Below, piece by piece: positions 10,194 to 40,343 of a DNA stretch of 64,000 nucleotides. The first letter of the stretch is position 1; each line of letters starts with the position of its first letter. The notes beneath the pieces are model-generated. The model was not told where the DNA came from. It worked only from the letters and a program-made list of their open reading frames with translations, and did not search any database. The position numbers and the translations under genes are program-made. The stretch covers positions 16,159 through 80,158 of the forward strand of contig JAFXIL010000195.1 of NCBI GenBank assembly GCA_017563185.1, read 5' to 3'. This DNA is from Kiritimatiellia bacterium (GTDB lineage Bacteria > Verrucomicrobiota > Kiritimatiellia > RFP12 > UBA1067).

Positions 10194-11165
10194 ATGGCAG
10201 CCGCCCATAATGAAGGCGCATCGCGCCGAAAGGCCGGATCTCTGGACCGGCGCTCGTTCGTTGGATCGCTCGCGGCGTTTGGCGCGGGACAGGTTGCGTT
10301 TGGCGCGACGAACTGCGTTGAGCAGACGTCTGCCGCGCCTAAGCCGAATAACAGGTTCTCGGCGTGGGACGAAGTGTCGCTTGGCGGCACGGGCATTCGC
10401 ACGTCGCGTCTTGGCTTCGGAACGGGCGTGAAGTCCGGCAACCGCTCCAGCGGGATGGTCCGCCGCAACGGACACGACGGCGCGGTGAAGCTGGTGCGCG
10501 CCGCATACGAGCGCGGGATAAGGTTCTTCGACACTGCCGACAGCTACGGCACCCACGCGGTGCTGCGCGAGGCGCTCTCTCCGTTTCCGCGTTCGTCCTA
10601 CGTAATCTGCACGAAGTACTGGTTCATGGGCGGCGGCATCCCGGAGGCCGACAAGTCCGACGTCGAGAGCTCCGTCAGCCGCTACCTTCGCGAGCTAGGA
10701 ACGGACTACATTGACATTTTGCAGCTGCATTGCGTGTTTCAGCCAGATTGGCCGACAAATCTCCAGAAGCACATGGAGGGGCTTGAGCGCTGCAAGAAGG
10801 CAGGAAAGATCCGCGCCCATGGCTGCTCGTTCCACGGCGCGAAGTCGCTTCCGCTCGCTGCCGACACGAAGTGGCTTGACGTGGCGCATGTGCAGATCAA
10901 CCCGTTTGGAAGCAAGATGGGACTCAAGCCAGACGAGGCGCTTGAGCAGGTACGGAGACTGCACGCCGCCGGGAAGGGCGTGATCGGGATGAAGGTGCTT
11001 GGCGAAGGGGCTATAGCCAAGGAAGGGCGCATGGACCAGTCGATTGCCTGGGTGCTGAAGAACAATGCTGCGGATGTGCTTGACATCGGTTTTCTCGACA
11101 TCGCCGAGATCGACGACATCGCCCGCCGTATCGCGGCGGTCGAGGGGACAGTCCCCAACACCTAG
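10194..11165 (+). CDS. aldo/keto reductase with twin-arginine signal peptide
   Basis: Internal start MAAAHNEG…SLDRRSFVGSLAAFGAG (TAT motif), with RBS ggaggtg upstream. The AKR fold is indicated by GxGxxxxG…RFFDTADSYG…ILQLHC…GVIGMKVLGEG. The last codons (…GTVPNT*) are themselves a copy of the downstream palindromic repeat. Confidence 0.8.
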   Translation: MAAAHNEGASRRKAGSLDRRSFVGSLAAFGAGQVAFGATNCVEQTSAAPKPNNRFSAWDEVSLGGTGIRTSRLGFGTGVKSGNRSSGMVRRNGHDGAVKLVRAAYERGIRFFDTADSYGTHAVLREALSPFPRSSYVICTKYWFMGGGIPEADKSDVESSVSRYLRELGTDYIDILQLHCVFQPDWPTNLQKHMEGLERCKKAGKIRAHGCSFHGAKSLPLAADTKWLDVAHVQINPFGSKMGLKPDEALEQVRRLHAAGKGVIGMKVLGEGAIAKEGRMDQSIAWVLKNNAADVLDIGFLDIAEIDDIARRIAAVEGTVPNT

Positions 11166-11399
11166 CGGGGACAGTCCCCAATGCTTCCAAGGGGGACAGT
11201 CCCCAATATCCAAGGGGGACAGTCCCCAATGCTTCCAAGGGGGACAGTCCCCAATGTTTGAAAAGGAGAACAGATGAGAACACCTAGCGGGGACAGTCCC
11301 CAATGCTTCAAGGTGACAGTCCCCAATATCCAAGGGTGACAGTCCCCAATGCTTCCAAGGGGGACAGTCCCCAATGTTTAGAAAAGGAGAACAGATGAA
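11142..11399 (+). repeat. tandem duplication (2 x ~122 bp) containing 9 copies of a ~24-bp sub-repeat with palindromic core GGGGACAGTCCCC
   Basis: The direct repeat unit aacacctagcggggacagtccccaatgcttccaag…aaaaggagaacagatga occurs twice (11156-11277 and 11278-11399). Each unit carries four GGGGACAGTCCCCAAT(A/G)(T/C)… sub-repeats at 23-25 bp spacing. A ninth copy lies within the last codons of the upstream reductase gene. Each 122-bp unit ends with RBS aaaaggagaacag plus ATG. Confidence 0.9.
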
Positions 11400-14300
11400 T
11401 GAAAAAAGCGGACGGGCCTGCGAAACGTTGGGTTGTCTTCGTTGGGCGCGGCTGTTGGCTCTTGTGGCGGGGATTGCCGCAGTTGGAGGCGTGAATGGTG
11501 CGGTGTCGTATATAGTTGATTCCGCCGAGGGGCCTGAGAAGGCGAAGTGGGCCGAAGACGTGCTTGAGTTCGCTGATCCGTTCATCGGCTCAGGCGGCAC
11601 GGGCCACACCACTCCGGCGGCCGCGTATCCGTTCGGCATGGTCCAGCCTGGCCCTGACACCAGCCACTCCGGCTGGGAACATTGCTCCGCCTACCAGTAC
11701 GGCGACAAGCGCATCAGGCGCTTCTCCCAGAACCATCTGAGCGGGACAGGCTGTTCTGAGTTCACCGACCTTGGATTCATGCCCTCGGCCGATGACCCTG
11801 ACGATGCGCTGAGGCGCGACTATTCTGCCGGTTTCGACAAGGCTACGGAAAATGCGTCGCCGGGATACTACACCGCCACGCTTGAATGCGGAACGAAGGT
11901 GGAGGCGACGTGCACGAGGCATGTGTCGCTCTTCCGCTTCACGTTTCCGAAGGGCAAGAAGGCGTCGCTCCTGTTCGATCCGTCGTGGTCGTTCTCCAGG
12001 ACAAAGTCCGCAGAAATCGCCACGATGAAGGATAGACGCGTCTCGGGACACGTCGACCGCCACGGCTGGCCGGGCCACGAGTACTGGTTCGCCTGGGAGG
12101 TGTCTGCCGAGCCCACGCGCGCGCGCGTCGTCAGAGAGGCCATGGCGGAGAAGGGCAGAGTGCCGATCTGCGCGTACGAATTCGATGCGGACAGGGACAA
12201 CGTCATCTACCTCAAGGTCGCGCTGTCGCGCACCTCCGCCAAGGGCGCGCGCCGCAACATCGACAAGGAGGTGCCGGACTGGGACTTCGACGGGGTGCTT
12301 GCCGCCAACCGCGCCGCCTGGCGCAGGATACTCGAGCGCGTAAAGGCGAAGGGCACCAGAGACCAGCTAAAGACACTCTATACTTCGCTCTACCACCTCT
12401 GCTTCCAGCCGAACACTATTTCAGACGTTGACGAACCCGACCTCTATTCCACCTTCTCGTGCTGGGATACGTATCGCGCGGCGGGTCCGCTCTACACCAT
12501 CCTCACTCCCGAATACGTGCCCGCGTTCATCAACTCGATGTTGTGGCACTTCGAGAAAAACGGCCACCTCCCCGTATGGACCCTCTGGGGCAAGGACAAC
12601 CAGTGCATGGTCGGCGTGCATTCAGTGCCCATGATTGTCGATGCGTACCTGAAGGGCTTCAAGGGCGTGGACTGGGAGCGGGCGTTCGACTGCGTGCGCA
12701 AGACGCTGAGGGAGAACCGCGGCAGATGGATTGCGCGATACGAGCTCCTCGACAAGTACGGCTACTATCCCTGCGACTTCATCAAGAACGAATCGGTGTC
12801 GTGGCTGCTCGAAAACTGCTACGACGATGCCTGCGCGTATCGTATGGCCAAGAAGCTCGGCGGCAGGAAAGAGGACGAGAAGTTCTTCCTTGAGCGTTCC
12901 CGCACCTGGACGAAGTGCTTCGACCCGAAGACCGGCTTCATACGCGCCCGCGACTCGAAGGGCAGATGGCGCGAACCTTTTGATCCCTACAGAATCCACG
13001 GCGAAGGCCATCACCACTACACGGAGGGCAACGCATTCCACTGGAACTGGCATGTCATGCAGGATCCTGACCTTCTCGTCAAACTGCTTGGCGGCAAGGA
13101 CGCCGCGCTCAAGAGGCTTTACGGACTCTTCAACGAAGACCCCAGCAAGCTTTCCGATGCGCCGCCGGATGTGACCGGTCTTATCGGGCAGTACTGCCAC
13201 GGCAACGAGCCTAGCCACCATAACATCTATTTCTTCTCTTTGCTCGGCAGGCGCGACCTCGCCGCCCAGTACATAAGGGAAGTGATGGATACGCAGTATC
13301 AGACCACTCCCACGGGCCTCTGCGGAAACGACGACTGCGGGCAGATGAGCGCGTGGTGCATATTCAGTACGCTGGGTTTCTATCCGTTCGACCCGTGCGG
13401 CGGCAAATACGTGCTTGGTGAAGCGCAGATGGAGGAGATATCCATCGACGTAGGCGGCGGCAAGCGGTTCCGGGTGTCGTCCGAACTGCCCGGCGAGGCT
13501 TCCAAGGCGGTTCAGTTCAACGGACGCAAGATGGACGGCGTCATGATCGCCCACGACGAGATAATGAAGGGCGGCACGCTCGACTTCGTTGGAGGCACCT
13601 CGAGGTTCGACTACGTCTTCGACACGACCGGCGCCCCGGAACTTGCCGCATGGACCAGGCAGAACCTTGCGCCGCTTATCCGCAAATGGTATCCGAAGCT
13701 GACCGAGATGTTCCCGTCGGAAGGCTGGAGCCCGAACAGGAAAGTCAGATTCCGCTTCAAGGAGAGAATCGGCTGCCCGGCGTATGCGGCTGGCAACTGC
13801 GTGACTTTGGACCGCGAGTGGATCAATAGCAACCCCACGGACGTCGGCTGCGCGATACACGAGCTTTTCCACATTGTCCAGGGCGGGTATCGCAAAGCTC
13901 CTGGCTGGCTTGCAGAAGGACTTGCCGACTACGTCAGGTTCTATCTCTATGAGCCTGAAGCGCATGGATGCGACTTGATTCTAGGCTCCTCCGAGGTACG
14001 CTACAACCAATCCTATCGCGTGTCCGCAAACTTCCTCAATTTTGTAGAAACGAAATACCCCGGCGTCGTGAAGGAGCTGAACGCGCTCTGCCGTCAGGGC
14101 AAATATGAAGAAGAGACCTACTGGAAGAAGCGCACCGGCAAGACGGTCAAAGAAATCGAGAGGGAATGGAAGTCCCTAGGGGATATGCCGTTCAGGTACT
14201 ACCGCTTCTGCGTTGACCGCACGAAGCGCCCGGCCGACTGCATGCAGCTTTCCGAAATCGAGCTGATCGATTCAAAGGGCAAGGTGATTCCCGCCGGGAG

Positions 14301-14658
14301 ATTCGAGCTTGGCTTCAACGGTAGCGGCGGCAGAAAGTTCGGAAATGGCGAAACGCCTGACCGGGCCATTGACGGCGACGTCGAAACCAAGTGGCTGGAT
14401 TTCAGGGCCGAGCACAATGCCAAGCCCTCGCTTCGCGCCGCCGTTTGGCTGCAGTTCAAGTTCGCCTCGCCGACTGAGCTCTCCGGCTACAGGTGGTACA
14501 CGGCGAACGACTTTGAAGACCGAGATCCCGGCGCCTGGCGCCTCCTCGGATCCAACGACGGCGCCAACTGGGTCATGATCGACCAGGTCACCGGCTTTCG
14601 CGCCACTTCAGAGCGCAACAAACTCGCCTTCTCCCGGCGCCTGCCAGAAGTGAAGTAG
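11395..14658 (+). CDS. secreted GH92-family alpha-mannosidase fused to an HExxH (BSP-like zincin) domain and a C-terminal F5/8-type discoidin (CBM32-like) domain
   Basis: A signal peptide follows M at 11395 (…LLALVAGIAAVGGVNGA). The GH92 N-terminal signature is GSGGTGHTTPAAAYPFGMVQPGPDT, and the GH92 body runs to about aa 740. Residues 745-930 contain GCAIHELFHIVQG (HExxH). Residues 940-1087 are F5/8-C-like (…DGDVETKWLDFRAEH…WRLLGSNDGANWVMI). An ATG at 11374 inside the repeat is an unlikely start. Confidence 0.85.
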   Translation: MNEKSGRACETLGCLRWARLLALVAGIAAVGGVNGAVSYIVDSAEGPEKAKWAEDVLEFADPFIGSGGTGHTTPAAAYPFGMVQPGPDTSHSGWEHCSAYQYGDKRIRRFSQNHLSGTGCSEFTDLGFMPSADDPDDALRRDYSAGFDKATENASPGYYTATLECGTKVEATCTRHVSLFRFTFPKGKKASLLFDPSWSFSRTKSAEIATMKDRRVSGHVDRHGWPGHEYWFAWEVSAEPTRARVVREAMAEKGRVPICAYEFDADRDNVIYLKVALSRTSAKGARRNIDKEVPDWDFDGVLAANRAAWRRILERVKAKGTRDQLKTLYTSLYHLCFQPNTISDVDEPDLYSTFSCWDTYRAAGPLYTILTPEYVPAFINSMLWHFEKNGHLPVWTLWGKDNQCMVGVHSVPMIVDAYLKGFKGVDWERAFDCVRKTLRENRGRWIARYELLDKYGYYPCDFIKNESVSWLLENCYDDACAYRMAKKLGGRKEDEKFFLERSRTWTKCFDPKTGFIRARDSKGRWREPFDPYRIHGEGHHHYTEGNAFHWNWHVMQDPDLLVKLLGGKDAALKRLYGLFNEDPSKLSDAPPDVTGLIGQYCHGNEPSHHNIYFFSLLGRRDLAAQYIREVMDTQYQTTPTGLCGNDDCGQMSAWCIFSTLGFYPFDPCGGKYVLGEAQMEEISIDVGGGKRFRVSSELPGEASKAVQFNGRKMDGVMIAHDEIMKGGTLDFVGGTSRFDYVFDTTGAPELAAWTRQNLAPLIRKWYPKLTEMFPSEGWSPNRKVRFRFKERIGCPAYAAGNCVTLDREWINSNPTDVGCAIHELFHIVQGGYRKAPGWLAEGLADYVRFYLYEPEAHGCDLILGSSEVRYNQSYRVSANFLNFVETKYPGVVKELNALCRQGKYEEETYWKKRTGKTVKEIEREWKSLGDMPFRYYRFCVDRTKRPADCMQLSEIELIDSKGKVIPAGRFELGFNGSGGRKFGNGETPDRAIDGDVETKWLDFRAEHNAKPSLRAAVWLQFKFASPTELSGYRWYTANDFEDRDPGAWRLLGSNDGANWVMIDQVTGFRATSERNKLAFSRRLPEVK

Positions 14659-14742
14659 GAATCCGTCGGCGCACGAAGATGCACATTACTGCGTAAGACC
14701 GGAAGCCCGCGCTTTGTGCCGCGTATGGCTACGCTCGCCGAA

Positions 14743-17037
14743 TTAGAAGCGGGCGAGATCGAGCATTGAGCCTGGGCCGAGCGCGCGAAGATAGATGAAG
14801 AAGTAGAAGCGGTTGTCGCATTCCTCCTTCGAGCCGTCCACGCGCGTGTACGAGGTCTCGTGTGCGAACTGGAAGCGGTAGCCGATGCAGTCCGTCATCA
14901 GGTCAAACCACGAGCCAACCTCGTCGAGGTCGTTGCGGCGGCAGTCGTAGCGGATGTACGGCGACCACGCGAACCAGTCGCACACGGTGTGCTCGAAGCC
15001 GAGCTGCACCACGTTTGAGTACTCGTAGTTCCATCTGTCGTAGAGGCTGGGAAGGTAGTTCCATATGCGGTGGTCGCGGCCGATGTAGCCGGCGTGCCAC
15101 GCGAAGACGTCGGTGAGGCGCTGGCGGAAGAAGACGTCGGCGTAGGCGGCCTTGGAGTTTTCGCAGTCGTATTCGGCGCGGGTGTAGAACGTGACGTCGC
15201 GGGTGGGCAGCCAGCGGATGCGCGTGCCGGGAACCGCCTGGCGGTGTCCGCTGCGGCTGTAGTTGGGGTCTTCGTCCGTGTCGGGGTAGCCGGCGAGAGG
15301 GCCGTCCTTGTATGGGGTCATGGTCTCGAAGGGGATGGCGGCATACACGTCCCAGTCCAGAATGGTTCGTAGAATGTTCTGCTCGTCCGTTCTCTGGAAG
15401 ACGTTGCGGATGCCGGGGCGCACGCCGTGCCAGCTGGTTGGAAGGCCGCGGCCCTCGAAGCCGAACTGGTCGAGCCAGTCGACGGAGCTGTCGTAGCTGT
15501 CGAAGACGTAGTGGCGCTTGCTACGGCCGGAGGAGAGCTGCGCGTTCTGGTAGGAGTAGTCGATGTACGGCTCGAAGGTGTGGCGCCACGAGTCGTTGAG
15601 CCAGCTGGTGGCGTGCGCGGAGAGGGTGAAGCCGAACTCGCAGATGTGGCGGAAGAGGGCGTCGCCGGAGGCCTTGAGGTATTCGGAGCTGCGCGAGCCG
15701 CTGTTGCTCCAGTAGGTGCCGCGGTAGCCGGCGCGCGGGTTGACGGCGAGCACGTCCCAGAGCTTGAAGGGGGCGGTCACGCGGTGCGCGGTGTCCATGC
15801 GAAAGGCCTGGTAGTCGGCGCCGCGTCCGCTCTCGCCGAGGTATGGAACGTAGCGGAACATCGGATCGTGCGAGCCGTAGCGGGCATAGTCGTGGTTGAG
15901 GTAGCCGGCGCGCGTCTGCGACTCGTAGTTGGCGGGGAGGTCCCAGATGGGCTGCGGGGCGATGTTGGCCCAGCCTTCCGGGAGGCGGGAGGTGCCGCCG
16001 TAGAAGTCGTTGATGGGACCGGATACGCTGCCGCCAACGGCCCATGAGAGCCAACGGTGTTCGTACCATGCTTCATTGGAGGGGAGGGACTCGAGGCGGT
16101 GGTCCTTGTCGAAGAAGTCGCGGTTCATGTGCGAGTCGCTGAAGTAGGTGGCATGCACTCGCAGGTCGTCGTTGGGCGAGAGTTCAGCGCTGTGGTCCAG
16201 CACCACACGGTAGCGGTGGCGGTCCACGTCGCTGCCCCAGTTCTGGTAGTTGCGGTGGTGCCCGCTCCAGCGGCGGCCGGTGTAGCGGTCGTAGTCCTCG
16301 TCCCAGGCGTTGTAGCCGGAGATCTTGCCCTTGCCGAACTCCTGCAGATCCCAGCGCAGCGACTGCCCCACGGCGAAGCCGTTTTTCGTGCGGTAGTCGG
16401 CCGAGGTCGATGCGCCCAGCTTGTAGCCGCCGGGTGTGCCGTCGTCGTACAGGTTGTACACGTATTTGGTGAGCAGAAAGCCGCCCCAGCGCGAGCGGTA
16501 GCCGGGCATTGCGCGCAGGCCGTAGTCGGTGTTGAGCGGGTAGTACCACATGGGCACCCAGAGAACGGGCACGTCCATGTACCTTAGCCATGCGTTCTTG
16601 ACGAGCACGGCCTTGTCCTGGATGTATGTGAAGTCGCCGCGGAGGTCCCAGTGAAGATGGTCCACATCGTTGGAGCATGTGGTGGCCTTGGCGGGATTGC
16701 CGAAGGAGTAGATGCCGTCCACGCTGCGAGAGACGCGCTCCGAGAAGAAGCGGTACGGCGCGGCAGTGGCTGTGACGGAGCCAGTGGCGAGCAGAGCCCC
16801 GTCCTTGAGTCCACCCTGCAGGTACTTGCCTGTCACCGTGAGCTCGCCCGCGATGCGCTGGCCCTTCGCCTTCTGTGGAAGGGGGGCTGGGGCGAGGAGG
16901 TCTAGGATGCTAGACTCGGGGGAGAGAATATCCAGCATGTTAGACTCGGCTGCGACAGCGCCGAGCGTGGCGAGCGAGGCAAGAAAGAGTAGTGTCTTTT
17001 TCATTGTATTTTGTTCGCTTTGCGGGCTGAGTGTCAT
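14743..17037 (-). CDS. lptD: LptD/OstA-like outer-membrane beta-barrel protein (LPS-assembly protein family, tentative)
   Basis: It has a signal peptide (MKKTLLFLASLATLGAVAAES), an N-terminal OstA-like beta-jellyroll region, and a very W/Y/G-rich C-terminal ~550 aa typical of large OM barrels. The start at 17037 overlaps the rng stop (ATGA); an alternative ATG is at 17004. The upstream 200 codons of the ORF-track entry are antisense/overlap artefact. Confidence 0.5.
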   Translation of the reverse strand: MTLSPQSEQNTMKKTLLFLASLATLGAVAAESNMLDILSPESSILDLLAPAPLPQKAKGQRIAGELTVTGKYLQGGLKDGALLATGSVTATAAPYRFFSERVSRSVDGIYSFGNPAKATTCSNDVDHLHWDLRGDFTYIQDKAVLVKNAWLRYMDVPVLWVPMWYYPLNTDYGLRAMPGYRSRWGGFLLTKYVYNLYDDGTPGGYKLGASTSADYRTKNGFAVGQSLRWDLQEFGKGKISGYNAWDEDYDRYTGRRWSGHHRNYQNWGSDVDRHRYRVVLDHSAELSPNDDLRVHATYFSDSHMNRDFFDKDHRLESLPSNEAWYEHRWLSWAVGGSVSGPINDFYGGTSRLPEGWANIAPQPIWDLPANYESQTRAGYLNHDYARYGSHDPMFRYVPYLGESGRGADYQAFRMDTAHRVTAPFKLWDVLAVNPRAGYRGTYWSNSGSRSSEYLKASGDALFRHICEFGFTLSAHATSWLNDSWRHTFEPYIDYSYQNAQLSSGRSKRHYVFDSYDSSVDWLDQFGFEGRGLPTSWHGVRPGIRNVFQRTDEQNILRTILDWDVYAAIPFETMTPYKDGPLAGYPDTDEDPNYSRSGHRQAVPGTRIRWLPTRDVTFYTRAEYDCENSKAAYADVFFRQRLTDVFAWHAGYIGRDHRIWNYLPSLYDRWNYEYSNVVQLGFEHTVCDWFAWSPYIRYDCRRNDLDEVGSWFDLMTDCIGYRFQFAHETSYTRVDGSKEECDNRFYFFIYLRALGPGSMLDLARF

Positions 17038-18725
17038 ACGGCCGGTTTCCCGGCACCAGAAGAGTATAGCACTTGTCCGCTCTCCGCGTCCAGTATAGAA
17101 TACGATTCCGGATGACGGTGGAGTTCCGAGACGAAGGTGAGCTTTGTGTTGAACTGTGCCTGCAGCTGTGCGAGAATCTGCGCGTCTTCGGTGCGCAGGC
17201 GCTGCATCACCGCGGGGGCGATCACTATCTTCGGCACGAACGGACGCTTCTCCGCGTCGGCCTTGCGCAGCAGGGACGTGAGCTGGCGCTGGAGTTCGAT
17301 GGAGACTGCGAGCGGACTCTTCACCACGCCGTGGCCGCCGCAGCACGGGCAGGTGCTGCTGAGCATGGAGAGGATGGATTCCTCGTGGCGCTGGCGGCTC
17401 ATCTCCAGGAGGCCGAGGTCGCTGATCTCGAGCACGTTGGTGCGCGCGCGGTCGCGCTTGAGCGCGTCCTTGAGCGCGCGGTACACCTGCTTCTGGTGCT
17501 TGCGGCTCTTCATGTCGATGAGGTCGAGCACCACGAGTCCGCCGATGTTCCTGAGGCGCAGCTGGCGGGCGACCTCCTCCACGGCCTCGAGGTTGACTTC
17601 GAGAATCGCCTCCTCCTGAGTGCCCTTGCACTTGTGGTGGCCGGTGTTCACGTCCACCGCGATGAGGGCCTCTGTCTCGTCGATCACGAGATAGCCGCCG
17701 CCTTTCAGGCGCACTTGGCGCTTGAATGCGTCGTGCAGCTGGCGCTCAACGCCGAGGCGCTCGAAGATGTTCTCTGCGCCGTCGTAGCGGCGCACCTTGC
17801 CGCGTGCGCGGCGGGAGATGCGGCTCGTGGCGTCGCGCAGCTTCTCGAAGGTGCTCTCGTCGTCCACGACAACGCTGTCGATGTCCTCGGTGAGCCAGTC
17901 GCGCACCACGCGCTCCACGAGGCCGGGCTCCTGCCACACGCAGCAGGGCGTGCGCAGGTTCTTCACGTTGCCCTGCAGCTCGTGCCAGCTCTGCAGGAGA
18001 TTGCGCATGTCGCGCACGAAGGAGGTTCCCTTGGCGCCAACGCCTGCTGTGCGCACGATGAGGCCCACGTCGTCGGGCAGGAGAAGGCGGTCGAGAATCT
18101 TCTTGAGGCGCTTGCGCTCCTCGGCGTCGCCGATCTTGCGGCTGACGCCGCGAGTCTTGGTGCCGGGCATCATCACTAGGTAGCGTCCGGGAATGGAGAG
18201 ATTCGTGGTCACGCGTGGCCCCTTGGTGGAGATGGGGCCCTTCGTCACCTGCACGATGATCTCGGTGCCGGGTTTGAAGCGCTCGTGGATCTCCTCGGTG
18301 GTGAGGCGCGGGGGCTTGCCGCGGCGCTTGGAGTTGTTCTTGCCTTTGCCGTTCTTGCCGTTTTTGCCGTTCTTGCCAGAGGACTTGTCGTCCGCATAGT
18401 CGTCGCTGCCGTCGTCGATTTCGTCGAGGAAGGCGTCTACGTCGGGCTGCATGTCCCAGTAGTGGAGGAACGCGTTCTTCTTCAGGCCGATGTCCACAAA
18501 CGCCGCCTGCAGGTCGTCCTGCAGGTTCTGGATGCGCCCCTTGAAGACGCATCCGACGAGGCGCTCGTCCTCGGGATGTTCCACCATGTACTCCTCGAGA
18601 CGTCCGTTTTCCATCACGGCCACGCGCGTCTCGAGCTTTTCGACGTTCACGAGTATCTCTCGCTTGATCTTGCTTCGGTTCAGCCAGTTCCTGACTGTGT
18701 TCACCACTGTTTGTATCACTGACAT
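17034..18725 (-). CDS. rng: RNase E/G-family endoribonuclease
   Basis: The start MSVIQTVVN…REILVNVEKLETRVAVMENGRLEEYMVE is the S1-domain start of the Rne/Rng family. Further markers are DVNTGHH (the DNase-I-like catalytic region) and a CPxCxGxG zinc link. It is 564 aa. RBS gaaaggaa lies upstream. Confidence 0.85.
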   Translation of the reverse strand: MSVIQTVVNTVRNWLNRSKIKREILVNVEKLETRVAVMENGRLEEYMVEHPEDERLVGCVFKGRIQNLQDDLQAAFVDIGLKKNAFLHYWDMQPDVDAFLDEIDDGSDDYADDKSSGKNGKNGKNGKGKNNSKRRGKPPRLTTEEIHERFKPGTEIIVQVTKGPISTKGPRVTTNLSIPGRYLVMMPGTKTRGVSRKIGDAEERKRLKKILDRLLLPDDVGLIVRTAGVGAKGTSFVRDMRNLLQSWHELQGNVKNLRTPCCVWQEPGLVERVVRDWLTEDIDSVVVDDESTFEKLRDATSRISRRARGKVRRYDGAENIFERLGVERQLHDAFKRQVRLKGGGYLVIDETEALIAVDVNTGHHKCKGTQEEAILEVNLEAVEEVARQLRLRNIGGLVVLDLIDMKSRKHQKQVYRALKDALKRDRARTNVLEISDLGLLEMSRQRHEESILSMLSSTCPCCGGHGVVKSPLAVSIELQRQLTSLLRKADAEKRPFVPKIVIAPAVMQRLRTEDAQILAQLQAQFNTKLTFVSELHRHPESYSILDAESGQVLYSSGAGKPAV

Positions 18726-18898
18726 GTCTGTTCCTTTCGGTTGTAAGTTTGTTTGAGAGTTTGAGAGTTTGAAAGTTTGAAGGTTTGAAAGTTTGAGAGT
18801 TTGAAAGGTTGAGAGTTTGAAAGGTTGAGAGTTTGAAAGGTTGAGAGTTTGAAAGTTTGAGAGTTTGAAGGTTTGAAAGGTTGAGAGTTTGATGGGTT
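18726..18898. repeat. 8-bp microsatellite (GTTTGARR / GGTTGAGA; ~18 tandem copies) occupying the whole rodA-rng intergenic spacer
   Basis: The tract gtttgagagtttgagagtttgaaagtttgaaggtttgaaagtttgagagtttgaaaggttgagagtttgaaagg… occupies 18747-18895. On the coding (minus) strand it reads as (YYTTCAAAC)n, i.e. a CA/U-rich unstructured 5' leader directly in front of the rng start. Confidence 0.9.
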
Positions 18899-20065
18899 CT
18901 AGGTTTCGGCGATTTCTTCGTTGTGGACGGCCACGCTCTGCACTAGGCCGAGCGAGGCCATCAGCACTATGAGGAAAGTGCGACCTGCGCTGATGAAGGG
19001 CAGCGGAAGGCCGGTTATGGGCATGAGCCCGATGGACATTGCGATGTTGATGTACACATGGCAGAAGATGAGTGTGGCCACGCCGGCTGCCAGAAGCTGG
19101 CCGCGTTCGTCGGTTGCCTTGAAGGCGATCCGGAGGCATGGCAACAGAACGCCCAGATAAAGAGCGAGCAGCAGCAGGTTGCCGATGAACCCGCTCTCCT
19201 CCGCCACCACCGCGAAGATGAAGTCGTTCATGGAGACTGACTGCGGCAAATATCCGAGCGCCTTGAACTCGCCCTTTCTCAGTCCCTTGCCCCATACGGA
19301 TCCCGAGCCAATCGAGATGAGCAGCTGATGCTGGCTGTATCCCGTTCCCTTCAGGTCCCTCTCCGGGAACAGGAACACCTTCAGTCGCTTGATCTGGTGC
19401 TCCCTCAGGGGAAGGCGGCTGTACATCTGCGCTTTGCGCGCCTCGTCGTTCTGGCGTTCGGCAACGTACACGGTGCCAAGCACCAGGCCTGCGGCGAGCA
19501 GCGCCACCATTAGCAGCGCAACGAGTCCTTTCGTCCAAACGCGCGCCACGAGCAGCATCACCATCACCGCCGGCGCCAGCACGAGCGCCGTGCCGAGGTC
19601 CGGCTCTTTGAGTATGAGAAGGGCGGGAACGGCGAACGCAGCACCCGCTGCGGCGAACCACTTGAAGGACCTGCGCCCCTCGCGCCCCAGCAGATACGCT
19701 ATGAAGATGATCACCGCGAGCTTTGCCACTTCGCTTGGCTGGAAGAACCACAGCCACCTTCTGCCGCCGTAGATCTCAGCGCCCACGATCAGCACCGCCA
19801 CGAGCAGTACGAGCGCGCCGGCGTAGGCGGGTATGGCCACGAAGTCGAAAAGCCTGCGATAGTCGATTGAGGCGAGCGTGAAGTAGATTGCGAGGCCGAA
19901 TGCGGCAGTGCCGGCGTGGACGCGCCAGATGTTCTGTATGACGGCTATCTGGCGTGTGCTGCAGGCGCTCCAGATGAACGCCGTGCCCATTGCTATTAGG
20001 CAGGTCATGCATGCTGTCAGCACCCAGTCGGTGCGTTTGAGCTTGGAAAGGAACGCCGCGATCAT
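18899..20065 (-). CDS. rodA: SEDS-family peptidoglycan glycosyltransferase RodA
   Basis: A 10-TM FtsW/RodA-like protein (…GTGYSQHQLLISIGSGSVWGKG…). It lies directly downstream of PBP2 (mrdA) in the mre cluster. Confidence 0.85.
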   Translation of the reverse strand: MIAAFLSKLKRTDWVLTACMTCLIAMGTAFIWSACSTRQIAVIQNIWRVHAGTAAFGLAIYFTLASIDYRRLFDFVAIPAYAGALVLLVAVLIVGAEIYGGRRWLWFFQPSEVAKLAVIIFIAYLLGREGRRSFKWFAAAGAAFAVPALLILKEPDLGTALVLAPAVMVMLLVARVWTKGLVALLMVALLAAGLVLGTVYVAERQNDEARKAQMYSRLPLREHQIKRLKVFLFPERDLKGTGYSQHQLLISIGSGSVWGKGLRKGEFKALGYLPQSVSMNDFIFAVVAEESGFIGNLLLLALYLGVLLPCLRIAFKATDERGQLLAAGVATLIFCHVYINIAMSIGLMPITGLPLPFISAGRTFLIVLMASLGLVQSVAVHNEEIAET

Positions 20066-20068
20066 CTG

Positions 20069-21949
20069 CTAGTCCCTCCCCTCGTAGTAGTGGACTGACG
20101 GGCGGCCGCCCGTCACCTCCTCCTCGCCGAATATCCCCGCGAGCACGTTGTGGACGCGCGGCGCAACAGTCTTGCCGCCTGATTCTCCTCGCTCCACGAG
20201 CATTGCGATCGCCACCGTCGGATTCTCGTATGGGGCGAAAGCGATGATCCACGTGTTCTTCCGCTTCGTCTCGCCGCGTCCGATCTCGGCCGTGCCCGTC
20301 TTGCCTGCGCAGTCCACCTTCAGCCTGAAGCGGCGGCGCCGTTCGCCGGGCTTCTGCGCCTGCTCGGTGCGCACGAGGATGGCGCGTCCCGTGCCTGTTT
20401 CCACAACGGCCTTCATGCTCTTCCTCACAAGGTCTATCGCGTCATCCTCGTAGGGAATGCGCCGCACGGCCGAGGCGATGTGCGCGCCCTCCCTGCGCGC
20501 GTATAGATATGGACGGTACACCCGTCCGCCGTTCGCGAGCGTGGCGGCCACCACTGCCATCTGGAGCGGTGTCACGAGCAGCATGCCTTGGCCGATGCAC
20601 ATCTGGCACGTGTCGCCGGGATACCAGTGCTCGTTGTACCAGCGGTATTTCCATTCGTCGTCGGGCACCACGCCGGAGTATTCCCCGCCGATGTCGATTC
20701 CGGTGCGCGAGCCCAGGCCGAAGGCCCGCGCGGCGGTGATGACGGCGTTGGAGCCAACAGCCGTGCCGAGGTTGCAGAAGAACGTGTTGCAGCTCTGCTC
20801 GATGGCATCGCTCAGATTGACGGAACCGTGTCCGTAGCGGTCCCAGCAATGGAGGCGCAGGTTGCCGAGGCGGTACACTCCCTGGCAGTTGTATTCGTCC
20901 TCGGGCATCCACGCGGTGGCGAGGCCGGCGAGGGCGGTGATGGGCTTGAATGTTGAGCCCGGGGCGTAGCCTTCGGAGATGGCGCGGTTCTGCCCGCGCT
21001 TGGCTGGGGCGTTCGTAAGGTTGGCGTACATTGCGTGCGTGAGGGCGGGCACGCACTCGTTGGGGTTGAAGGTGGGGGCGCTTGCGAGGGCCAGCACGGC
21101 GCCGTCGCGCGGATCCAGCACCACACCCGCGCCGGTGACGCCTTCGAGCTCGCGTTCGAGCGACGCCTGTATCCTTATGTCGAGCGTGAGGGCAAGGTCG
21201 AGCCCGTTGGCCGGCGCCACGTCGCCGTCTTCCGTTTCGTCCATGATGCTCTTGTGGGCGCGGGTTGGACGGAACCCGCGTGCGTCCACCGTCACGCGCT
21301 TCTCTCCCGTCACACCCGAAAGGAATCGGTTGTAGTAGCTCTCCACCCCGCCGCGTCCCTTCATCTCCTTCTCGTTGAAGTACACTGGATCGTTCTCAAA
21401 TCCCTCGGGATCGCTGCGGCCCGTGTAGCCCAATACGTGCGCGGCGAGGGACCCGAAGGGGTAGGTGCGTTCGGCGGAGACATGGTCGGCGAAACCAGGG
21501 AACTCGTGGGAGCGCTCGCAGAAGCGCGCGAAGGTGGCCTCGTCGAGGTCTTGCCACGCCACAAGGGGTATCGCGCTTGCAGTGTGCAGGTGGCGCGCGA
21601 TCTCGCGCGCGGATATCTGGCGGGGAATCGCAAGGGCGCGGGAGAGCGCGTCGATTGCCGCGTCAACTGCGGCGACGGTGTTTGACGATGCGCCGCGGCG
21701 CTGGAACTCCTCGAGATTGCACTGGATGCAGCGGCTTGGACGGCATTCGGCGAGCACACGGCCGTTGCGGTCGAAGATGCGGCCGCGCCTGCCGGGAACG
21801 CGCACGCGGCGGATGGTCTGAATGGCCTGGCTTTCGCGCGACTTCGCAACGTTGAGAACCTGCAGGCGGAATAGAGAAATGCCCAGCACGAGTTCGCCGA
21901 ACACGAACACCGCGCCGAGCGCGGCTATGAACCAGCGGGACGGATTCAT
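20069..21949 (-). CDS. mrdA: penicillin-binding protein 2 (elongasome transpeptidase)
   Basis: It has an N-terminal TM anchor and a PBP dimerisation domain (…RGRIFDRNGRVLAE…). Transpeptidase motifs STFK, SSN and KTGT are present. Synteny is mreBCD-mrdA-rodA. Confidence 0.9.
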   Translation of the reverse strand: MNPSRWFIAALGAVFVFGELVLGISLFRLQVLNVAKSRESQAIQTIRRVRVPGRRGRIFDRNGRVLAECRPSRCIQCNLEEFQRRGASSNTVAAVDAAIDALSRALAIPRQISAREIARHLHTASAIPLVAWQDLDEATFARFCERSHEFPGFADHVSAERTYPFGSLAAHVLGYTGRSDPEGFENDPVYFNEKEMKGRGGVESYYNRFLSGVTGEKRVTVDARGFRPTRAHKSIMDETEDGDVAPANGLDLALTLDIRIQASLERELEGVTGAGVVLDPRDGAVLALASAPTFNPNECVPALTHAMYANLTNAPAKRGQNRAISEGYAPGSTFKPITALAGLATAWMPEDEYNCQGVYRLGNLRLHCWDRYGHGSVNLSDAIEQSCNTFFCNLGTAVGSNAVITAARAFGLGSRTGIDIGGEYSGVVPDDEWKYRWYNEHWYPGDTCQMCIGQGMLLVTPLQMAVVAATLANGGRVYRPYLYARREGAHIASAVRRIPYEDDAIDLVRKSMKAVVETGTGRAILVRTEQAQKPGERRRRFRLKVDCAGKTGTAEIGRGETKRKNTWIIAFAPYENPTVAIAMLVERGESGGKTVAPRVHNVLAGIFGEEEVTGGRPSVHYYEGRD

Positions 21950-22503
21950 GCGTCCCCTCCGATCGACTCGGGGCCTTCGAATCCCACGTTCTTCTCAAGG
22001 CGCGGCATGAGGAAGAAAATGACTGCGCCCACAGGGGCGGCGGGGATGGCGCTCGCGAAGAAGCGTATTATCGGCGCTGGATCGTCGCCCGCGACGCCCC
22101 ACACGGCGAGCCACAGTTCGTGAAGGGGGGCGGCAAGCGTCACCGCCAGGAGTCCGAAGGCCGCAGGGGAGAGGGTGGCTGCGGTTGAGCGCATGAAGCG
22201 CATGGAGACGCCGGCGAGAAGGAAGAAGCCGGTGGCGCAGCCTATCGGGAAGCCGCTCAGCGCGTCCTCGAGCGCGCCTGCGAAGACGGCCACGGGAATC
22301 CAGCGGGCGGCGTAGAACGGACGCTTCCGCGATGGGTGGCGTTCGGAGTCGTTGGTAGGTTGGTCGGCAATGGTCCAGTGGAGGACGAGCGCGAGGAGGA
22401 ATGGGGGCTTCGTCCCGCCGAAGACGGGCCACATGTCCTGCAGCGCGGCAGCGAAGACCGTGCAGACGAAGAAGAAGAGGAACTGTACTGCTCTAGTCTT
22501 CAC
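21946..22503 (-). CDS. mreD: rod shape-determining protein MreD (tentative; GTG start)
   Basis: A small polytopic membrane protein (VQFLFFFVCTVFAAAL…) between mreC and mrdA. The GTG at 22503 overlaps the mreC stop, and the 3' end overlaps the mrdA start. The longer ORF-track version (to 22590) is implausible. Confidence 0.5.
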   Translation of the reverse strand: MKTRAVQFLFFFVCTVFAAALQDMWPVFGGTKPPFLLALVLHWTIADQPTNDSERHPSRKRPFYAARWIPVAVFAGALEDALSGFPIGCATGFFLLAGVSMRFMRSTAATLSPAAFGLLAVTLAAPLHELWLAVWGVAGDDPAPIIRFFASAIPAAPVGAVIFFLMPRLEKNVGFEGPESIGGDA

Positions 22504-23332
22504 GGCGGATGAACACGTCCTCGAGGGATTGGAAGTCGACGGCCGGCATGACGGCTCCCTCCCTCTCAAGCTGCGTTTCGTCCTCTTCACACCCTTCGAC
22601 CAGGTAGCCGACCGTCAGCCCGCGGGGAAATACGCCCCCCAGGCCGCTAGTGATGATTTTCGCATTTGGCGGCAGTGCGGGCCGCCTTTTCATGTGTCGC
22701 ATGCGAAGAGGGTTTACAAGATACAGAATGGAAAGTCCGGTGCGGGCGTGGGCGATGTGCGTGCCGCCGCCCTCGAGTATGCCGTGCACTGCGCCCAGCG
22801 AGGGGTCGCCGGTATGGATTTCGCAGGCGACCTTTACGGAAGGATCTGTGAGAAGGCGCACGTCGGCCGTGCTGCGCGACACCTGCTCGACGCGCCCCAC
22901 TAGCCCGCCCGGCACGGCAACGGTGGCGTTTGTCTTGACGCCGTCAGCCGAGCCGCGCCCCACGCGCATGAGCCCGCGCACGCCGCCTGCTCCGTCGCGG
23001 CTCAGCACCGGCGCGCATATCCAGCGGTTCGTGGCGGCCGCGGAATATGCCAGCAGCTTCCTGAGCCGCTGGTTCTCCTCGGCGAGTGCGTTTCTTTCCG
23101 TCTCGAGCATTCGCAGTGCGGCCGCCTCAGTTCTGAGCCGCTGGTTCTCGGAGGCTGTTTGCGCCGGGCGGCACACCGCCTTGAGCCAGGCCACGGGGCC
23201 GCGCACCGTCCAGACACGGGCGTTCTCCACGGGATACACAGCCTCCTTGGCAAGACTGCGCCCGCACGCGAGCCAAAGCCCGAGAGCTGCAAGCGCGACT
23301 AGCGCGGCGACTGTTCCTGTGTTGCCTTTCAA
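22493..23332 (-). CDS. mreC: rod shape-determining protein MreC
   Basis: It has a signal anchor, a coiled-coil region (LRTEAAALRMLETERNALAEENQRLRKLL), and a C-terminal beta-barrel-like domain. The start is TTG at 23332, preceded by RBS gggaagg. Confidence 0.8.
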   Translation of the reverse strand: MKGNTGTVAALVALAALGLWLACGRSLAKEAVYPVENARVWTVRGPVAWLKAVCRPAQTASENQRLRTEAAALRMLETERNALAEENQRLRKLLAYSAAATNRWICAPVLSRDGAGGVRGLMRVGRGSADGVKTNATVAVPGGLVGRVEQVSRSTADVRLLTDPSVKVACEIHTGDPSLGAVHGILEGGGTHIAHARTGLSILYLVNPLRMRHMKRRPALPPNAKIITSGLGGVFPRGLTVGYLVEGCEEDETQLEREGAVMPAVDFQSLEDVFIRRED

Positions 23333-23366
23333 TCGTCCTTCCCTTGCGGAAGGACTTCCGGACGCG

Positions 23367-24410
23367 TCAGTCTCTCTTGTTCTTGAGGAGAATGTCGAGC
23401 TGGCTCATGACCTGTCCGGTGCCCTCGGCCACCGCCGAGAGAGGATCGTCCGCAAGCGTGACGGGCAGACCCGTCTCCTGGGCGATCAGCTTGTCGAGGC
23501 CGCGCAGAAGCGAACTGCCGCCGGAGAGCACGATGCCGCGGTCCACAAGGTCCGCCGCCAGCTCCGGTTCGCAGTTGCCCAGCGTCGAGCGAACAGCCTC
23601 GACGATGTTTGAAACAGGTTCTGTGAGCGAGTCTCTGATCTCCTCGGACGAGATCGTCATCGTCTTCGGAAGCCCCGCCACTATGTCACGGCCGCGCACT
23701 TCCATGGTCATCTCCTGACCTGTAGGAAACGCCGAACCGATCGTCATCTTGATTTCCTCGGCCGTGCGCTCGCCAATCAGAAGATTGTACACGCGCCGCA
23801 TGTGGCTCACGATGCACGCGTCCATGGCGTCGCCCGCCGAACGCACGCTGCGCGAATGCACTATGCCGGCAAGCGAGATGATCGCCACCTCGCATGTGCC
23901 GCCGCCGATGTCCACTATCATGCTGCCCGCCGGCTCTGACACCGGCAGTCCCACTCCGATCGCCGCCGCCATCGGCTCCTCGACCAGAACAACCTCTCCC
24001 GCCCCTGACGCCTTGGCGGCATCTTCGACCGCGCGCTTCTCCACCTCCGTGATGTCGCCTGGAACGGCAATCACCACGCGCGGCTTCGCGTAGTTCCTCC
24101 AAACGTGCTTGGGGCACACTTTGTTTATGAAATAGCTGAGCATGGCCTCCGTTACGTCAAAGTCCGCAATCACGCCGGACTTCATCGGACGAATGGCCAT
24201 GATGTTTCCGGGAGTGCGGCCAAGCATCTTCTGAGCCTCAATTCCAACGGCCAGAACGCGCTTGGTGTCCTCCTTTATTGCGACAACGCTGGGCTCCCTC
24301 AGCACTATTCCATGGTCCTTGACGTAAACAAGGCAGTTGGCAGTGCCGAGGTCTATGCCGATGTCGGTTGAGAAGAAGCTCGAAAAGAGACCTTTGAATT
24401 TGGAAAACAT
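23367..24410 (-). CDS. mreB: actin-like rod shape-determining protein MreB
   Basis: The motifs DLGTANCLVYV…DIGGGTCEVAI… are actin-fold phosphate-binding motifs. It is 347 aa. Confidence 0.95.
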   Translation of the reverse strand: MFSKFKGLFSSFFSTDIGIDLGTANCLVYVKDHGIVLREPSVVAIKEDTKRVLAVGIEAQKMLGRTPGNIMAIRPMKSGVIADFDVTEAMLSYFINKVCPKHVWRNYAKPRVVIAVPGDITEVEKRAVEDAAKASGAGEVVLVEEPMAAAIGVGLPVSEPAGSMIVDIGGGTCEVAIISLAGIVHSRSVRSAGDAMDACIVSHMRRVYNLLIGERTAEEIKMTIGSAFPTGQEMTMEVRGRDIVAGLPKTMTISSEEIRDSLTEPVSNIVEAVRSTLGNCEPELAADLVDRGIVLSGGSSLLRGLDKLIAQETGLPVTLADDPLSAVAEGTGQVMSQLDILLKNKRD

Positions 24411-24455
24411 GTTACATATTATAGACTATTCGCGCGCGCGTTGCAAGGGGATTTG

Positions 24456-24464
24456 TGATATACT
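24456..24464 (+). promoter_or_regulatory. extended -10 element TGaTATACT inside the 15-mer GATTTGTGATATACT, 6 nt upstream of the anSME ATG
   Basis: An identical 15-mer also occurs at 25622-25636, and the start codon follows 6-7 nt later in both cases. This suggests leaderless transcripts and/or a shared operator. Confidence 0.4.
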
Positions 24465-24470
24465 TGTGGC

Positions 24471-25535
24471 ATGGATTTTTCTCTGCTGGTAAAACCCGTG
24501 GGCTCGGCATGCAATCTTGCCTGCGACTACTGCTTCTACTGCCCGGCCAACGGAGCGCGCGCCCCGGCGCCTGCGCGCATGACGCGCGCCGTGCTGGAGC
24601 GGATGCTCGCTTCGTATCTGGCCGAGCCAGTTTCCGCCCCGGCGGTCGCCTTCCAGGGTGGCGAACCGCTGCTGGCGGGCGAGGACTTCTTCCGCGGGGC
24701 TGCTGCAATCGCCGCGCGCGCCGGGCGGCGCGTTTCGTTCTCCGTCCAGACGAACGGCACCCTCGTCACACCCTCCCTCGCCCGCTTCTTCGCCGCGGAG
24801 GGTTGGCTCGTCGGCGTGAGCGTTGACGGCCCCGCCTCCCTGCACGACCTTCACCGCCGCACCTCGTCGTCCTCACCCTCCCATGCCGATGTCCTGGCCG
24901 GTCTCTCGGCCCTCCGTTCAGCCGGCGTCGAGTTCAACACCCTCACCCTCGTCACCCCAGCCAACGCCAGTTCCCCCGAAATCGTCTATCGCCACCTTCG
25001 CGACGAGATCGGCGCCCGCTTCCTCCAGTTCATCGAATGCACATCGCCGGCGCCCTACGCGGTCTCCGCCGCTGCATGGGGCGATTTTCTCTGCCGCCTA
25101 TACGATGTGTGGCGCGCGTGCGGCGACGAGCGCCGCGTGAGCGTGCGCCTATTCGACACGATCGTGCTACGGCTTCTGGGCGGCCCGCCGGACGCCTGTC
25201 CGTTCGCCAGCGACTGCCGCAACTACTTCGTCGTCGAGAACGATGGCTCGGTCTATCCCTGCGACTTCCACGTCTCCCCCGAATGGCGCCTTGGCGACGT
25301 CATGCATGATTCATGGACTTCGCTCGTGGAGAGTCCCCTCTACGCCGCATTTGGACAGCGCAAGTCCGATCTTCCGTCCCAGTGCCTGGAATGTCCATAC
25401 TGCTTCATCTGCCAGGGCGACTGTGTGCGCAACCGCGCGCCGGGCGGTCCCTCACGCCTGTGCGCCGGCTGGCGCCGCTTCTTCGATCACGCCATCCCCG
25501 GCCTCGCCGAACTCGCCCGCGAGGTGGTGTGGTAG
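24471..25535 (+). CDS. anaerobic sulfatase-maturating enzyme (radical SAM / SPASM)
   Basis: CNLACDYCFY is the radical-SAM CxxxCxxC cluster. The C-terminal Cys-rich SPASM region is CPFASDC…CDFHV…CLECPYCFICQGDC. The size (354 aa) and architecture match AnSME (AslB/ChuR-like). Confidence 0.85.
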   Translation: MDFSLLVKPVGSACNLACDYCFYCPANGARAPAPARMTRAVLERMLASYLAEPVSAPAVAFQGGEPLLAGEDFFRGAAAIAARAGRRVSFSVQTNGTLVTPSLARFFAAEGWLVGVSVDGPASLHDLHRRTSSSSPSHADVLAGLSALRSAGVEFNTLTLVTPANASSPEIVYRHLRDEIGARFLQFIECTSPAPYAVSAAAWGDFLCRLYDVWRACGDERRVSVRLFDTIVLRLLGGPPDACPFASDCRNYFVVENDGSVYPCDFHVSPEWRLGDVMHDSWTSLVESPLYAAFGQRKSDLPSQCLECPYCFICQGDCVRNRAPGGPSRLCAGWRRFFDHAIPGLAELAREVVW

Positions 25536-25627
25536 ACTCGTGGCTCGTGGCTCGTGGCCCGTGACGCCACTTCGTTTTTGTTGTTGCGCGCATGGAACCG
25601 TTAGACTGGCGCTGAGATGCCGATTTG

Positions 25628-25636
25628 TGATATACT
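25628..25636 (+). promoter_or_regulatory. extended -10 element TGaTATACT inside the second copy of GATTTGTGATATACT, 7 nt upstream of the GH43 ATG
   Basis: See the feature at 24456; the 15-mer here is at 25622-25636 and the ATG is at 25644. Confidence 0.4.
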
Positions 25637-25643
25637 CTTTGCA

Positions 25644-40213: not shown

Positions 40214-40343
40214 TTAACGCAGAGACGCAGAGACGCATAGGCGCAGAGAATCCCATATAAAGCAGAAAGAGAATGAGAATCGAAACTATGAAGAATATGA
40301 GCACATACGATTCTTTCTCCGCGCCTCTGCGCCTCTGCGTTAA
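40214..40343. repeat. imperfect inverted repeat: 23-bp arms (TTAACGCAGAGACGCAGAGACGC / GCGCCTCTGCGCCTCTGCGTTAA, 2 mismatches) built from tandem CGCAGAGA octamers, flanking an 84-bp AT-rich core
   Basis: Left arm 40214-40236; right arm 40321-40343. Arm similarity extends, with gaps, to about 39 bp (…GCGCAGAGAATC / GATTCTTTCTCCGCGC…). The core (ccatataaagcagaaagagaatgagaatcgaaactatgaagaatatgagcacatacg) is AT-rich, unlike the rest of the genome. It lies between dinG and hrpB. Confidence 0.85.

Follow-up and report, generated by a model that had tools for sequence, protein, structure and literature searches.

A strain-variable octamer array between rodA and rng in an uncultured Kiritimatiellae bacterium is probably slippage-grown intercistronic sequence rather than a conserved leader of the ribonuclease gene

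What is the role, if any, of the octamer repeat that occupies most of the spacer between rodA and rng in a 64,000-nt stretch of DNA from an uncultured gut or rumen Kiritimatiellae bacterium? The whole stretch is referred to here as the window, its positions serve as coordinates, and the minus strand is the mRNA and coding strand of both neighbouring genes, which encode a SEDS peptidoglycan glycosyltransferase (rodA) and a ribonuclease of the Rne/Rng family (rng). An earlier reading of the locus (the original prediction) regarded the repeat as a 5' leader through which the ribonuclease gene might be autoregulated. Comparison with related genomes makes it rather probable that the array is instead a variable-number tandem repeat (VNTR) that grew by slippage in the one long junction of a cell-shape gene cluster, and that it represents intercistronic sequence and not a conserved regulatory element.

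The anatomy of the array agrees with what had been described: an 8-bp repeat of about 18 copies in the rodA–rng spacer. Tandem Repeats Finder places it at 18751–18892 (minus strand), where it comprises 17.8 copies of an 8-nt unit (82% matches) and also fits a period of 16 nt (8.9 copies, 90% matches; scores 186–214). The consensus of the unit on the minus strand is CAAMCYYT. Read along the mRNA, 17 full units are followed by a terminal CAAAC; eight of them are CAAACTCT, four CAACCTTT, three CAAACTTT and two CAAACCTT. For the corresponding 16-nt two-unit pattern, the window contains 16 matches, all within the array, whereas dinucleotide-shuffled sequences yield a mean of 0.07 matches and never 16. 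Altogether, the array covers 142 of the 173 nt (82%) of the spacer (18726–18898) and ends 12 nt before the Shine-Dalgarno (SD) sequence of rng (GAAAGGAA, 18738–18731, minus strand) and 25 nt before its ATG (18725–18723, one base off the position implied earlier). Exact 16-nt periodicity extends over as much as 63 nt, a core of repeated CAAACTCT-CAACCTTT at 18793–18855 (minus strand), whereas no stretch longer than 22 nt shows exact 8-nt periodicity, so that this core is probably the most recent expansion and was built in double units.

The spacer comprises 66 A, 59 C, 4 G and 44 T. All four G are located in the SD region, and the tract that separates the stop codon of rodA from the SD sequence (18739–18898, minus strand) is an untranslated sequence of C, A and U only, in which a codon scan detected neither a start nor a stop codon in any frame. 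No other tract in the 64 kb is as poor in G (at most 3 G per 80 nt), and all 127 segments of 78 nt with a C/G ratio of at least 5 map to 18724–18927 of the minus strand, with a peak ratio of 30. An N-terminal extension of the ribonuclease or a small open reading frame (ORF) within the tract is ruled out by the lack of a start codon, and a 907-aa ORF that crosses the array is an artefact because the repeat is free of stop codons. The window contains a single array of the CAAMCYYT unit; the same 17.8-copy array recurs in two other metagenome assemblies (L001 and L003), and its identity in all three rules out an assembly artefact.

Among close strains, the array differs in length by whole units. 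Strains whose RNase diverges by no more than 1.2% carry about 2, 3, 4, 10 or 17 units, in steps of 8 nt, which bears out the earlier suggestion that the octamer is a slippage hotspot. The 17-unit allele is shared by the window, L001 and L003 (100% RNase identity); in a further assembly with the identical RNase (L002), the contig breaks within the array, and the order of the units fits a 16-nt deletion. P0122 strains, which have one identical RNase (99.1% to that of the window), possess spacers of 53, 61 and 69 nt, corresponding to 2, 3 and 4 units, and P0126 and P0127 strains (99.3–99.5%) have variants of 61–85 nt with other unit orders. In the P0125 strains (98.8%), there are 10 units in L289 and L292, 4 in L290, and 9 matching units with one base change in L291. 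A collapsed assembly is an unlikely cause of the short allele in L084 because the entire 53-nt spacer is shorter than the k-mer of the assembly (k=141; record k141_1075275). Two further features of the P0125 strains concern the surroundings of the repeat: their array is preceded by a heptamer array, (CAGAAAC) x4, and a called 212-aa "gene" proves to be an ORF extending across the stop-free repeat.

Three properties identify the tract as a tandem repeat that varies between strains: it is tandem beyond chance, it differs between strains by whole units, and it is not conserved in sister species. With bacterial simple sequence repeats (SSRs) and VNTRs that are subject to slipped-strand mispairing, it shares the head-to-tail arrangement of short units, the whole-unit steps between strains, the absence from sister species, and a higher-order expansion in 16-nt steps. 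It differs from typical cases in the unusual unit length of 8 nt, the imperfection of the units, and its location in the middle of an operon of an uncultured gut Kiritimatiellae and not at a surface-antigen gene of a pathogen.

Stepwise differences of 8 nt among strains with identical flanking proteins would also fit a contingency or rheostat locus, at which frequent slippage within populations shifts the expression of rng with every step. There is a precedent in the 5' untranslated region (UTR) of uspA2 of Moraxella catarrhalis, which carries 6–23 copies of AGAT, with top expression at 18, according to Attia and Hansen (2006) as cited in PMC4679880. Like (AGAT)n, the octamer array is an untranslated repeat that precedes a start codon and whose copy number depends on the strain (6–23 there, 2–17 here), but as far as that secondary account goes, the effect of the uspA2 repeat on expression was demonstrated by mutation, whereas the octamer array is known from its sequence only, and the unit, the organism and the class of gene are different. 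In silico, occlusion of the SD sequence by CCUUUC units likewise grows with copy number. Nevertheless, a contingency locus appears improbable at this junction. The repeat of a phase-variable locus is located within an ORF or in the stretch that separates the −35 and −10 elements of a promoter, whereas the octamer array has a stop codon on one side and an SD sequence on the other, contains no start codon and has no promoter match; it thus offers no mechanism for on/off switching. Its units are imperfect, the 17-unit allele does not differ among the three assemblies, and the non-repetitive spacer of a sister species has the same length in 10 samples. Moreover, RNase G is a housekeeping enzyme and not encoded by a surface or host-interaction gene.

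The position of the array within the gene cluster indicates how it is likely to be expressed. From 24410 down to 14743, every gene is on the minus strand, in the order mreB-mreC-(mreD)-mrdA-rodA-[array]-rng-orf764, and their junctions measure, in that order, 34 nt, an overlap, an overlap, 3 nt, 173 nt and again an overlap. The rodA–rng spacer is the sole long junction in this same-strand cluster, which extends beyond rng because the ATG of the following ORF (764 aa) overlaps the rng stop codon by 4 nt. The best promoter match across 14000–26000 is a sigma-70-like site (TTGCAA-17-TATAAT, 10/12, a consensus match only) located directly upstream of mreB (24418–24446, minus strand), whereas scans for promoters and terminators found no match in the spacer on either strand. 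A check by eye of the TTGAAA/TTGAGA words (plus strand) and of TACAAC (minus strand) revealed no usable pair of −10 and −35 elements in the spacer, and a −10 element is impossible within the G-free tract because it lacks any TA dinucleotide. Given that the strong promoter-like site ahead of mreB is the only one, the array is most likely transcribed as an intercistronic stretch of the operon mRNA. The claim that the repeat is part of an mRNA is very probably correct on these grounds. In view of the promoter-like site upstream of mreB and the 4-nt overlap of the two genes in most relatives (see below), "intercistronic spacer" is a better description than "5' leader".

The same observations bear on the possibility that the array acts at the level of DNA, as a promoter, as an UP element or as a set of protein-binding sites that serves rng or an antisense transcript. 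The words TTGAGA and TTGAAA, which match the −35 consensus at five of six positions, recur every 8 nt on the plus strand, and in one relative (L082), an octamer array upstream of rodA abuts a −10 element (TGGTATAAT). However, there is no promoter match in the spacer on either strand, the lack of TA precludes a −10 element on the mRNA strand, and the hexamers 16–18 nt from the −35-like words do not resemble one. The period of 8 bp is also out of phase with the DNA helix, and a DNA-level element is extremely unlikely.

The history of the junction becomes apparent when the orthologous loci are compared. The adjacency of rodA and rng is kept in nearly all of 80 species representatives of Kiritimatiellota, and long spacers are restricted to a genus-level clade with RNase identities of at least 84%. 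Among species with RNase identities of up to 76%, rodA and rng overlap by 4 nt (ATGA) in about 25 loci, which suggests translational coupling of the two genes, and nearly all other spacers are shorter than 50 nt. Within the clade, the content of the spacer differs by species: at 84–92% RNase identity, spacers range from 20 to 276 nt and are unrelated in content. The spacer is almost absent in L085 (20 nt), L227 (25 nt) and L228 (31 nt). In others it consists of non-repetitive filler, which is C/A-rich in L005 (142 nt) and constant in length (135 nt) in the 10 samples L230–L239; G-poor, C/A-rich filler is present in L005, L008 and L066/L230. In L006, L009 and L047, the junction is occupied by 12.5, 5.9 and 4 copies, respectively, of an unrelated octamer, (GTTAAGTR)n, and in L007 by a 14-mer repeat (TTCAATCTTCAGTG). 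A relative of L007 (L229; 1–278) carries an insertion of about 130 nt, palindromic (CAGAGGCAATTGCAAAACCTC ... GAGGTTTTGCAATTGCCTCTTCAG), within the TTCAATCTTCAGTG repeat; in appearance, this insertion resembles a miniature inverted-repeat transposable element.

In one species with 90% RNase identity (P0007; L086–L094), rng is apart from rodA and has an exosortase gene (EpsH) upstream. Its leader is 191 nt long, is identical in nine samples, and contains GC-rich stem-loops and a promoter-like site (TGGTATAAT), the canonical form found in relatives with a separate promoter. In having structure, it differs from the repeat of the window. When 13 orthologous upstream regions are aligned, only the AAAGGA core of the SD sequence and the ATG are conserved at 90% or more. 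By this alignment, there is no sign that the array is a conserved regulatory element of rng; selection is visible only on the roughly 15 nt around the SD sequence, and the remainder of the spacer is free to change and does so rapidly.

At the RNA level, the tract is G-poor and, as had been presumed, essentially unstructured. Over 221 nt, its minimum free energy is −9.85 kcal/mol (z = +2.1), and all 200 shuffled sequences fold at least as well; over 150 nt, the energy is −4.6 kcal/mol and the centroid structure is empty. The sole recurrent pairing predicted in silico connects CCUUUC units with the GAAAGG of the SD sequence. By contrast, the sister array (GUUAAGUR)n of L006 is free of C and forms a long hairpin (−23.1 kcal/mol, z = −6.1), which rules out "unstructured RNA" as a property shared across species. 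The lack of any RNA-level property common to the arrays at this junction argues against a shared selected function of the RNA.

These results lend no support to a dedicated autoregulatory leader as envisaged in the original prediction. The array resembles the 5'-UTR element of rne in Escherichia coli in that it is an untranslated region ahead of a gene of the RNase E/G family. However, the E. coli element consists of conserved stem-loops, whereas the tract in the window is unstructured, is not conserved among orthologues beyond the SD core and the ATG, and yields no relevant Rfam family: a search of the whole window at gathering scores reached none, and five weak matches obtained at E values of up to 10 for 18500–19100 include no rne-leader family. 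The case for a leader is weakened further by sister species that have no spacer, unrelated filler, or a structured octamer. A more modest version, in which RNase G cleaves its own single-stranded, A/U-containing leader in the way that RNase E of E. coli acts on the rne 5' UTR, could draw on the single-strandedness of the tract, on three sites in CAAACUUU units that resemble the RN|WUU cleavage consensus, and on the location of rng at a processing-prone junction of a long operon. Autoregulation is documented for rne and is not known for rng, and with neither structure nor conservation in the tract, such a target is highly unlikely.

An RNA free of G and of stable structure might also favour translation. 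G-less, CAA-rich leaders such as the omega leader of tobacco mosaic virus act as enhancers, and the tract could likewise serve as a translational enhancer or a standby platform that binds ribosomal protein S1 or the 30S subunit and boosts initiation at the SD sequence of rng after coupling to rodA was lost. The G-poor, C/A-rich filler of L005, L008 and L066/L230 would be in line with such a role, and for TAACTGA repeats just upstream of start codons, MacGregor has proposed binding of S1, Csp or CsrA (PMC4679880). However, the closest strains have only 2–3 units, other species manage with a 20-nt spacer, and the sister octamer forms a hairpin; for arrays of the same type, no significant bias in orientation relative to genes could be shown (14 sense vs 7 antisense, p = 0.19; see below). 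An enhancer is quite unlikely.

The composition of the tract is more suggestive of Rho utilization (rut) sites, which are characterized by an excess of C over G, little structure, a length of at least 60–90 nt, freedom from ribosomes, and regularly spaced C (PMC6407284, PMC12360218). All of these features are present in the array at the sequence level: 59 C versus 4 G, 34 matches to a pattern of regularly spaced C, 35 YC dinucleotides, and an unstructured, untranslated tract well above the required length that has no start codon in any frame and should therefore be free of ribosomes. In addition, the 5-mer CAAAC with its 3-nt linker resembles the A/C-rich 5-nt contacts with linkers of 4–5 nt observed by cryo-electron microscopy of Rho–RNA complexes (PMC12360218). 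In such an attenuator, Rho would load onto the naked tract behind the rodA stop codon and cause partial termination ahead of or inside rng. Loading would be poor with alleles of less than about 60 nt and good with the 160-nt allele, and selection would have made the number of repeats a determinant of the RNase G dose; indeed, the G-free tracts of the short alleles (30–46 nt) are below the optimal length. Several differences make a selected, copy-number-tunable attenuator unlikely all the same. Natural rut sites are not tandem repeats, and the period of 8 nt deviates from the 9–10 nt of Rho. The property is also not conserved, because the octamer at the same site in the sister species has the opposite composition (C-free, G-rich and hairpin-forming) and other species lack a spacer. 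Moreover, the prediction of rut sites is unreliable (PMC12360218). A tblastn search of the window and the locus sequences of its relatives with an E. coli Rho query produced no match, a result that is uninformative about rho in the genome.

Is the octamer itself special? A degenerate search for three consecutive units, (CAAMCYYT)x3, retrieved at least 120 metagenome contigs and 12 viral contigs. In the metagenome contigs, arrays of this type adjoin unrelated genes; the confirmed downstream genes among the matches listed encode a phosphofructokinase, an NAD synthase, a GNAT acetyltransferase, an FGE-sulfatase-type protein and a primase. In the viral contigs, reversed or permuted octamers of the same composition are about as frequent (10, 20 and 11 matches) as CAAMCYYT (12 matches), which indicates that the octamer is not special. 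The original prediction had named an invariant copy number together with a scatter of the repeat over non-regulatory contexts as findings that would speak against it. Copy number varies, in agreement with the prediction, whereas the occurrence of the octamer type next to unrelated genes in at least 120 contigs counts against it.

The orientation of the arrays relative to genes gave no clear signal. A first ORF-based count yielded 29 sense versus 19 antisense arrays, and a stricter reading of these data, limited to ATG starts near the array, about 25 versus 10, whereas a greedy ORF count gave the opposite bias; the latter is confounded because ORFs run through the stop-free arrays. With a GC-frame strand caller validated on the genes of the window, 14 sense and 7 antisense arrays were located 5' of genes (p = 0.19). 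With no significant strand bias shown and permuted octamers equally frequent in the viral contigs, the idea of (CAAMCYYT)n as a special, widespread leader element is not supported. Other Kiritimatiellota loci contain many intergenic arrays with periods of 7–9 nt and differing units, some of them upstream of rodA.

On the evidence of the 64 kb and of the loci of relatives, this diversity also appears to distinguish the array from the TAACTGA heptamers of Beggiatoaceae, Cyanobacteria and Bacteroidetes, in which a single heptamer is dispersed over at least 100 loci in each genome, with related or scrambled versions being rare (PMC4679880). Like these repeats and the short tandemly repeated repetitive (STRR) heptamers of cyanobacteria, the octamer array is intergenic and lies just upstream of a start codon, as those repeats often do, and such arrays may comprise tens of copies (PMC4679880); in both cases, the spacer is shorter and free of repeats in close relatives that share the gene neighbourhood. 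Unlike with the TAACTGA repeats, however, there is only one such array in 64 kb, related genomes contain many different units, and permuted octamers are as common in the viral contigs, the only collection searched with such controls.

Slippage-driven growth at an unconstrained junction, the explanation that we favour, can be cast as a sequence of events. Loss of the ancestral overlap of rodA and rng would have freed the junction from constraint, and replication slippage would have enlarged an array there, most recently in 16-nt double units. Transcription from a promoter upstream of mreB would place the array within a polycistronic mRNA, in which its expansion would uncouple the translation of rng from that of rodA and expose, ahead of rng, about 160 nt of G-free, C-rich, unstructured RNA without start codons, a type of RNA preferred by Rho (at rut sites) and by RNase E/G. 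The prediction would then be that, relative to rodA, rng and the ORF behind it are expressed at a lower level in long alleles, with a reduction that roughly follows copy number. An effect of the array on the expression of rng is plausible in the light of these features, and any such effect would probably be a by-product of the expansion.

Several points weigh against this scenario. Co-transcription of the cluster and the presence of the array in an mRNA are inferred from the gene layout. Three assemblies share the same 17-unit allele, which is thus not hypermutable on that timescale, and the imperfect units, with exact 8-nt periodicity over no more than 22 nt, should slow slippage. Arrays arose at this junction at least twice independently from unrelated octamers. 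In the P0125 strains (L289–L292), the array has remained next to rng even though the gene upstream is no longer rodA. Finally, the mean probability that the SD sequence is unpaired drops in silico from 0.67 with 0–2 units to 0.24 with eight or more; the underlying CCUUUC–SD pairing would be a specific, copy-number-dependent effect for which neutral growth has no need.

A more far-reaching interpretation would treat the octamer VNTR as a heritable "polarity rheostat", in which slippage alters the length of a G-free, C-rich tract for Rho loading or RNase entry and thereby sets the amount of RNase G relative to the cell-shape machinery, with the repeated birth of arrays reflecting selection for tunability. 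We regard this as distinctly improbable. If copy number did set the level of rng via Rho loading or RNase entry, the locus would represent a repeat-length rheostat that operates through transcriptional polarity in a housekeeping operon, and we know of no description of such a system. The VNTR would be of use as a strain marker in an uncultured lineage from gut and rumen. It also illustrates that a formerly overlapping gene junction can turn into a hotspot of repeat birth, which within one genus has given rise to two unrelated octamers, a 14-mer and a palindromic insertion.

The identity of the genes that flank the array was predicted correctly. The rng gene (17034–18725, minus strand) encodes a protein of 563 aa (NCBI MBR6735029.1, from a Kiritimatiellae metagenome-assembled genome) that matches the Rne/Rng family model TIGR00757 with 465 bits (cutoff 326). 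In size, it is RNase G-like, with a score of 391 bits for the RNase G equivalog model, below the cutoff of 594. For rodA (18899–20065, minus strand), TIGR02210 is the best match (307 bits), though below its cutoff of 336.7 bits, and an orthologue matches Pfam FTSW_RODA_SPOVE. Upstream on the same strand, mrdA, which encodes PBP2 (20069–21949; TIGR03423, 490 bits, cutoff 455), lies 3 nt from rodA. It is preceded by a putative mreD (21946–22590), assigned by position only and with an uncertain start codon, which has no match in NCBIfam or Pfam; by mreC (22493–23332; MreC models with E = 1e-25 to 1e-22, all under the curated cutoffs); and by mreB (23367–24410; PF06723 MreB_Mbl, 475 bits), the first gene of the cluster. 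The 764-aa ORF downstream of rng (14743–17037, minus strand) follows the gene calls in L001 and has no Pfam match.

A second repeat is located within rng itself: a 9-nt in-frame repeat at 18346–18377 specifies an insert rich in Gly, Lys and Asn (GKNGKNGKNGKGKNN) close to the N-terminal end of the RNase. Between species, this coding VNTR varies from 3.6 to 7.8 copies, and L066 has a perfect 15-nt version in four copies. Octamer arrays upstream of rodA are located in L082 (1705–1748; (CCAAGCCT) x5.5) and in L079 and L083 (1706–1739; (CCAATCAG) x4). The former is the array that abuts the TGGTATAAT site, which has the form of an extended −10 element, and the latter is followed by a GC hairpin and TATACTAT. 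In L060, a long-read metagenome-assembled genome of Kiritimatiellia, (AGGGTTTC) x5.8 lies just downstream of rng (4593–4639) and (AGAGTTG) x5.9 another 600 nt further on (5236–5276); both correspond to the G-rich strand of arrays of this kind. The metagenome and viral contigs with CAAMCYYT-type arrays (L095–L226) cover many GC contents and sometimes contain several arrays per contig, in both orientations. Variants among them include (CAACCCTT)n, (CAACCTCT)n, (CAAACCCT)n and (CAAACTCT)n, and several are located immediately upstream of start codons that lack an SD sequence.

Elsewhere in the window, two mutually inverted intergenic arrays, (ACGCAGAG) x4 at 40217–40249 and its reverse complement (CTCTGCGC/CTCCGCGC) x3 at 40317–40339, flank an A/T-rich segment of 67 nt. 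On the plus strand, 11144–11398 contains about nine copies of a perfect palindrome (GGGGACAGTCCCC) at a spacing of 23–24 nt, arranged in a tandemly duplicated 120-nt segment, each copy of which has an SD sequence (AAAAGGAGAACAGATG) and a start codon. This region is located directly upstream of a 1094-aa ORF (11374–14658) and resembles an array of operators or hairpins in which the translation start is duplicated.

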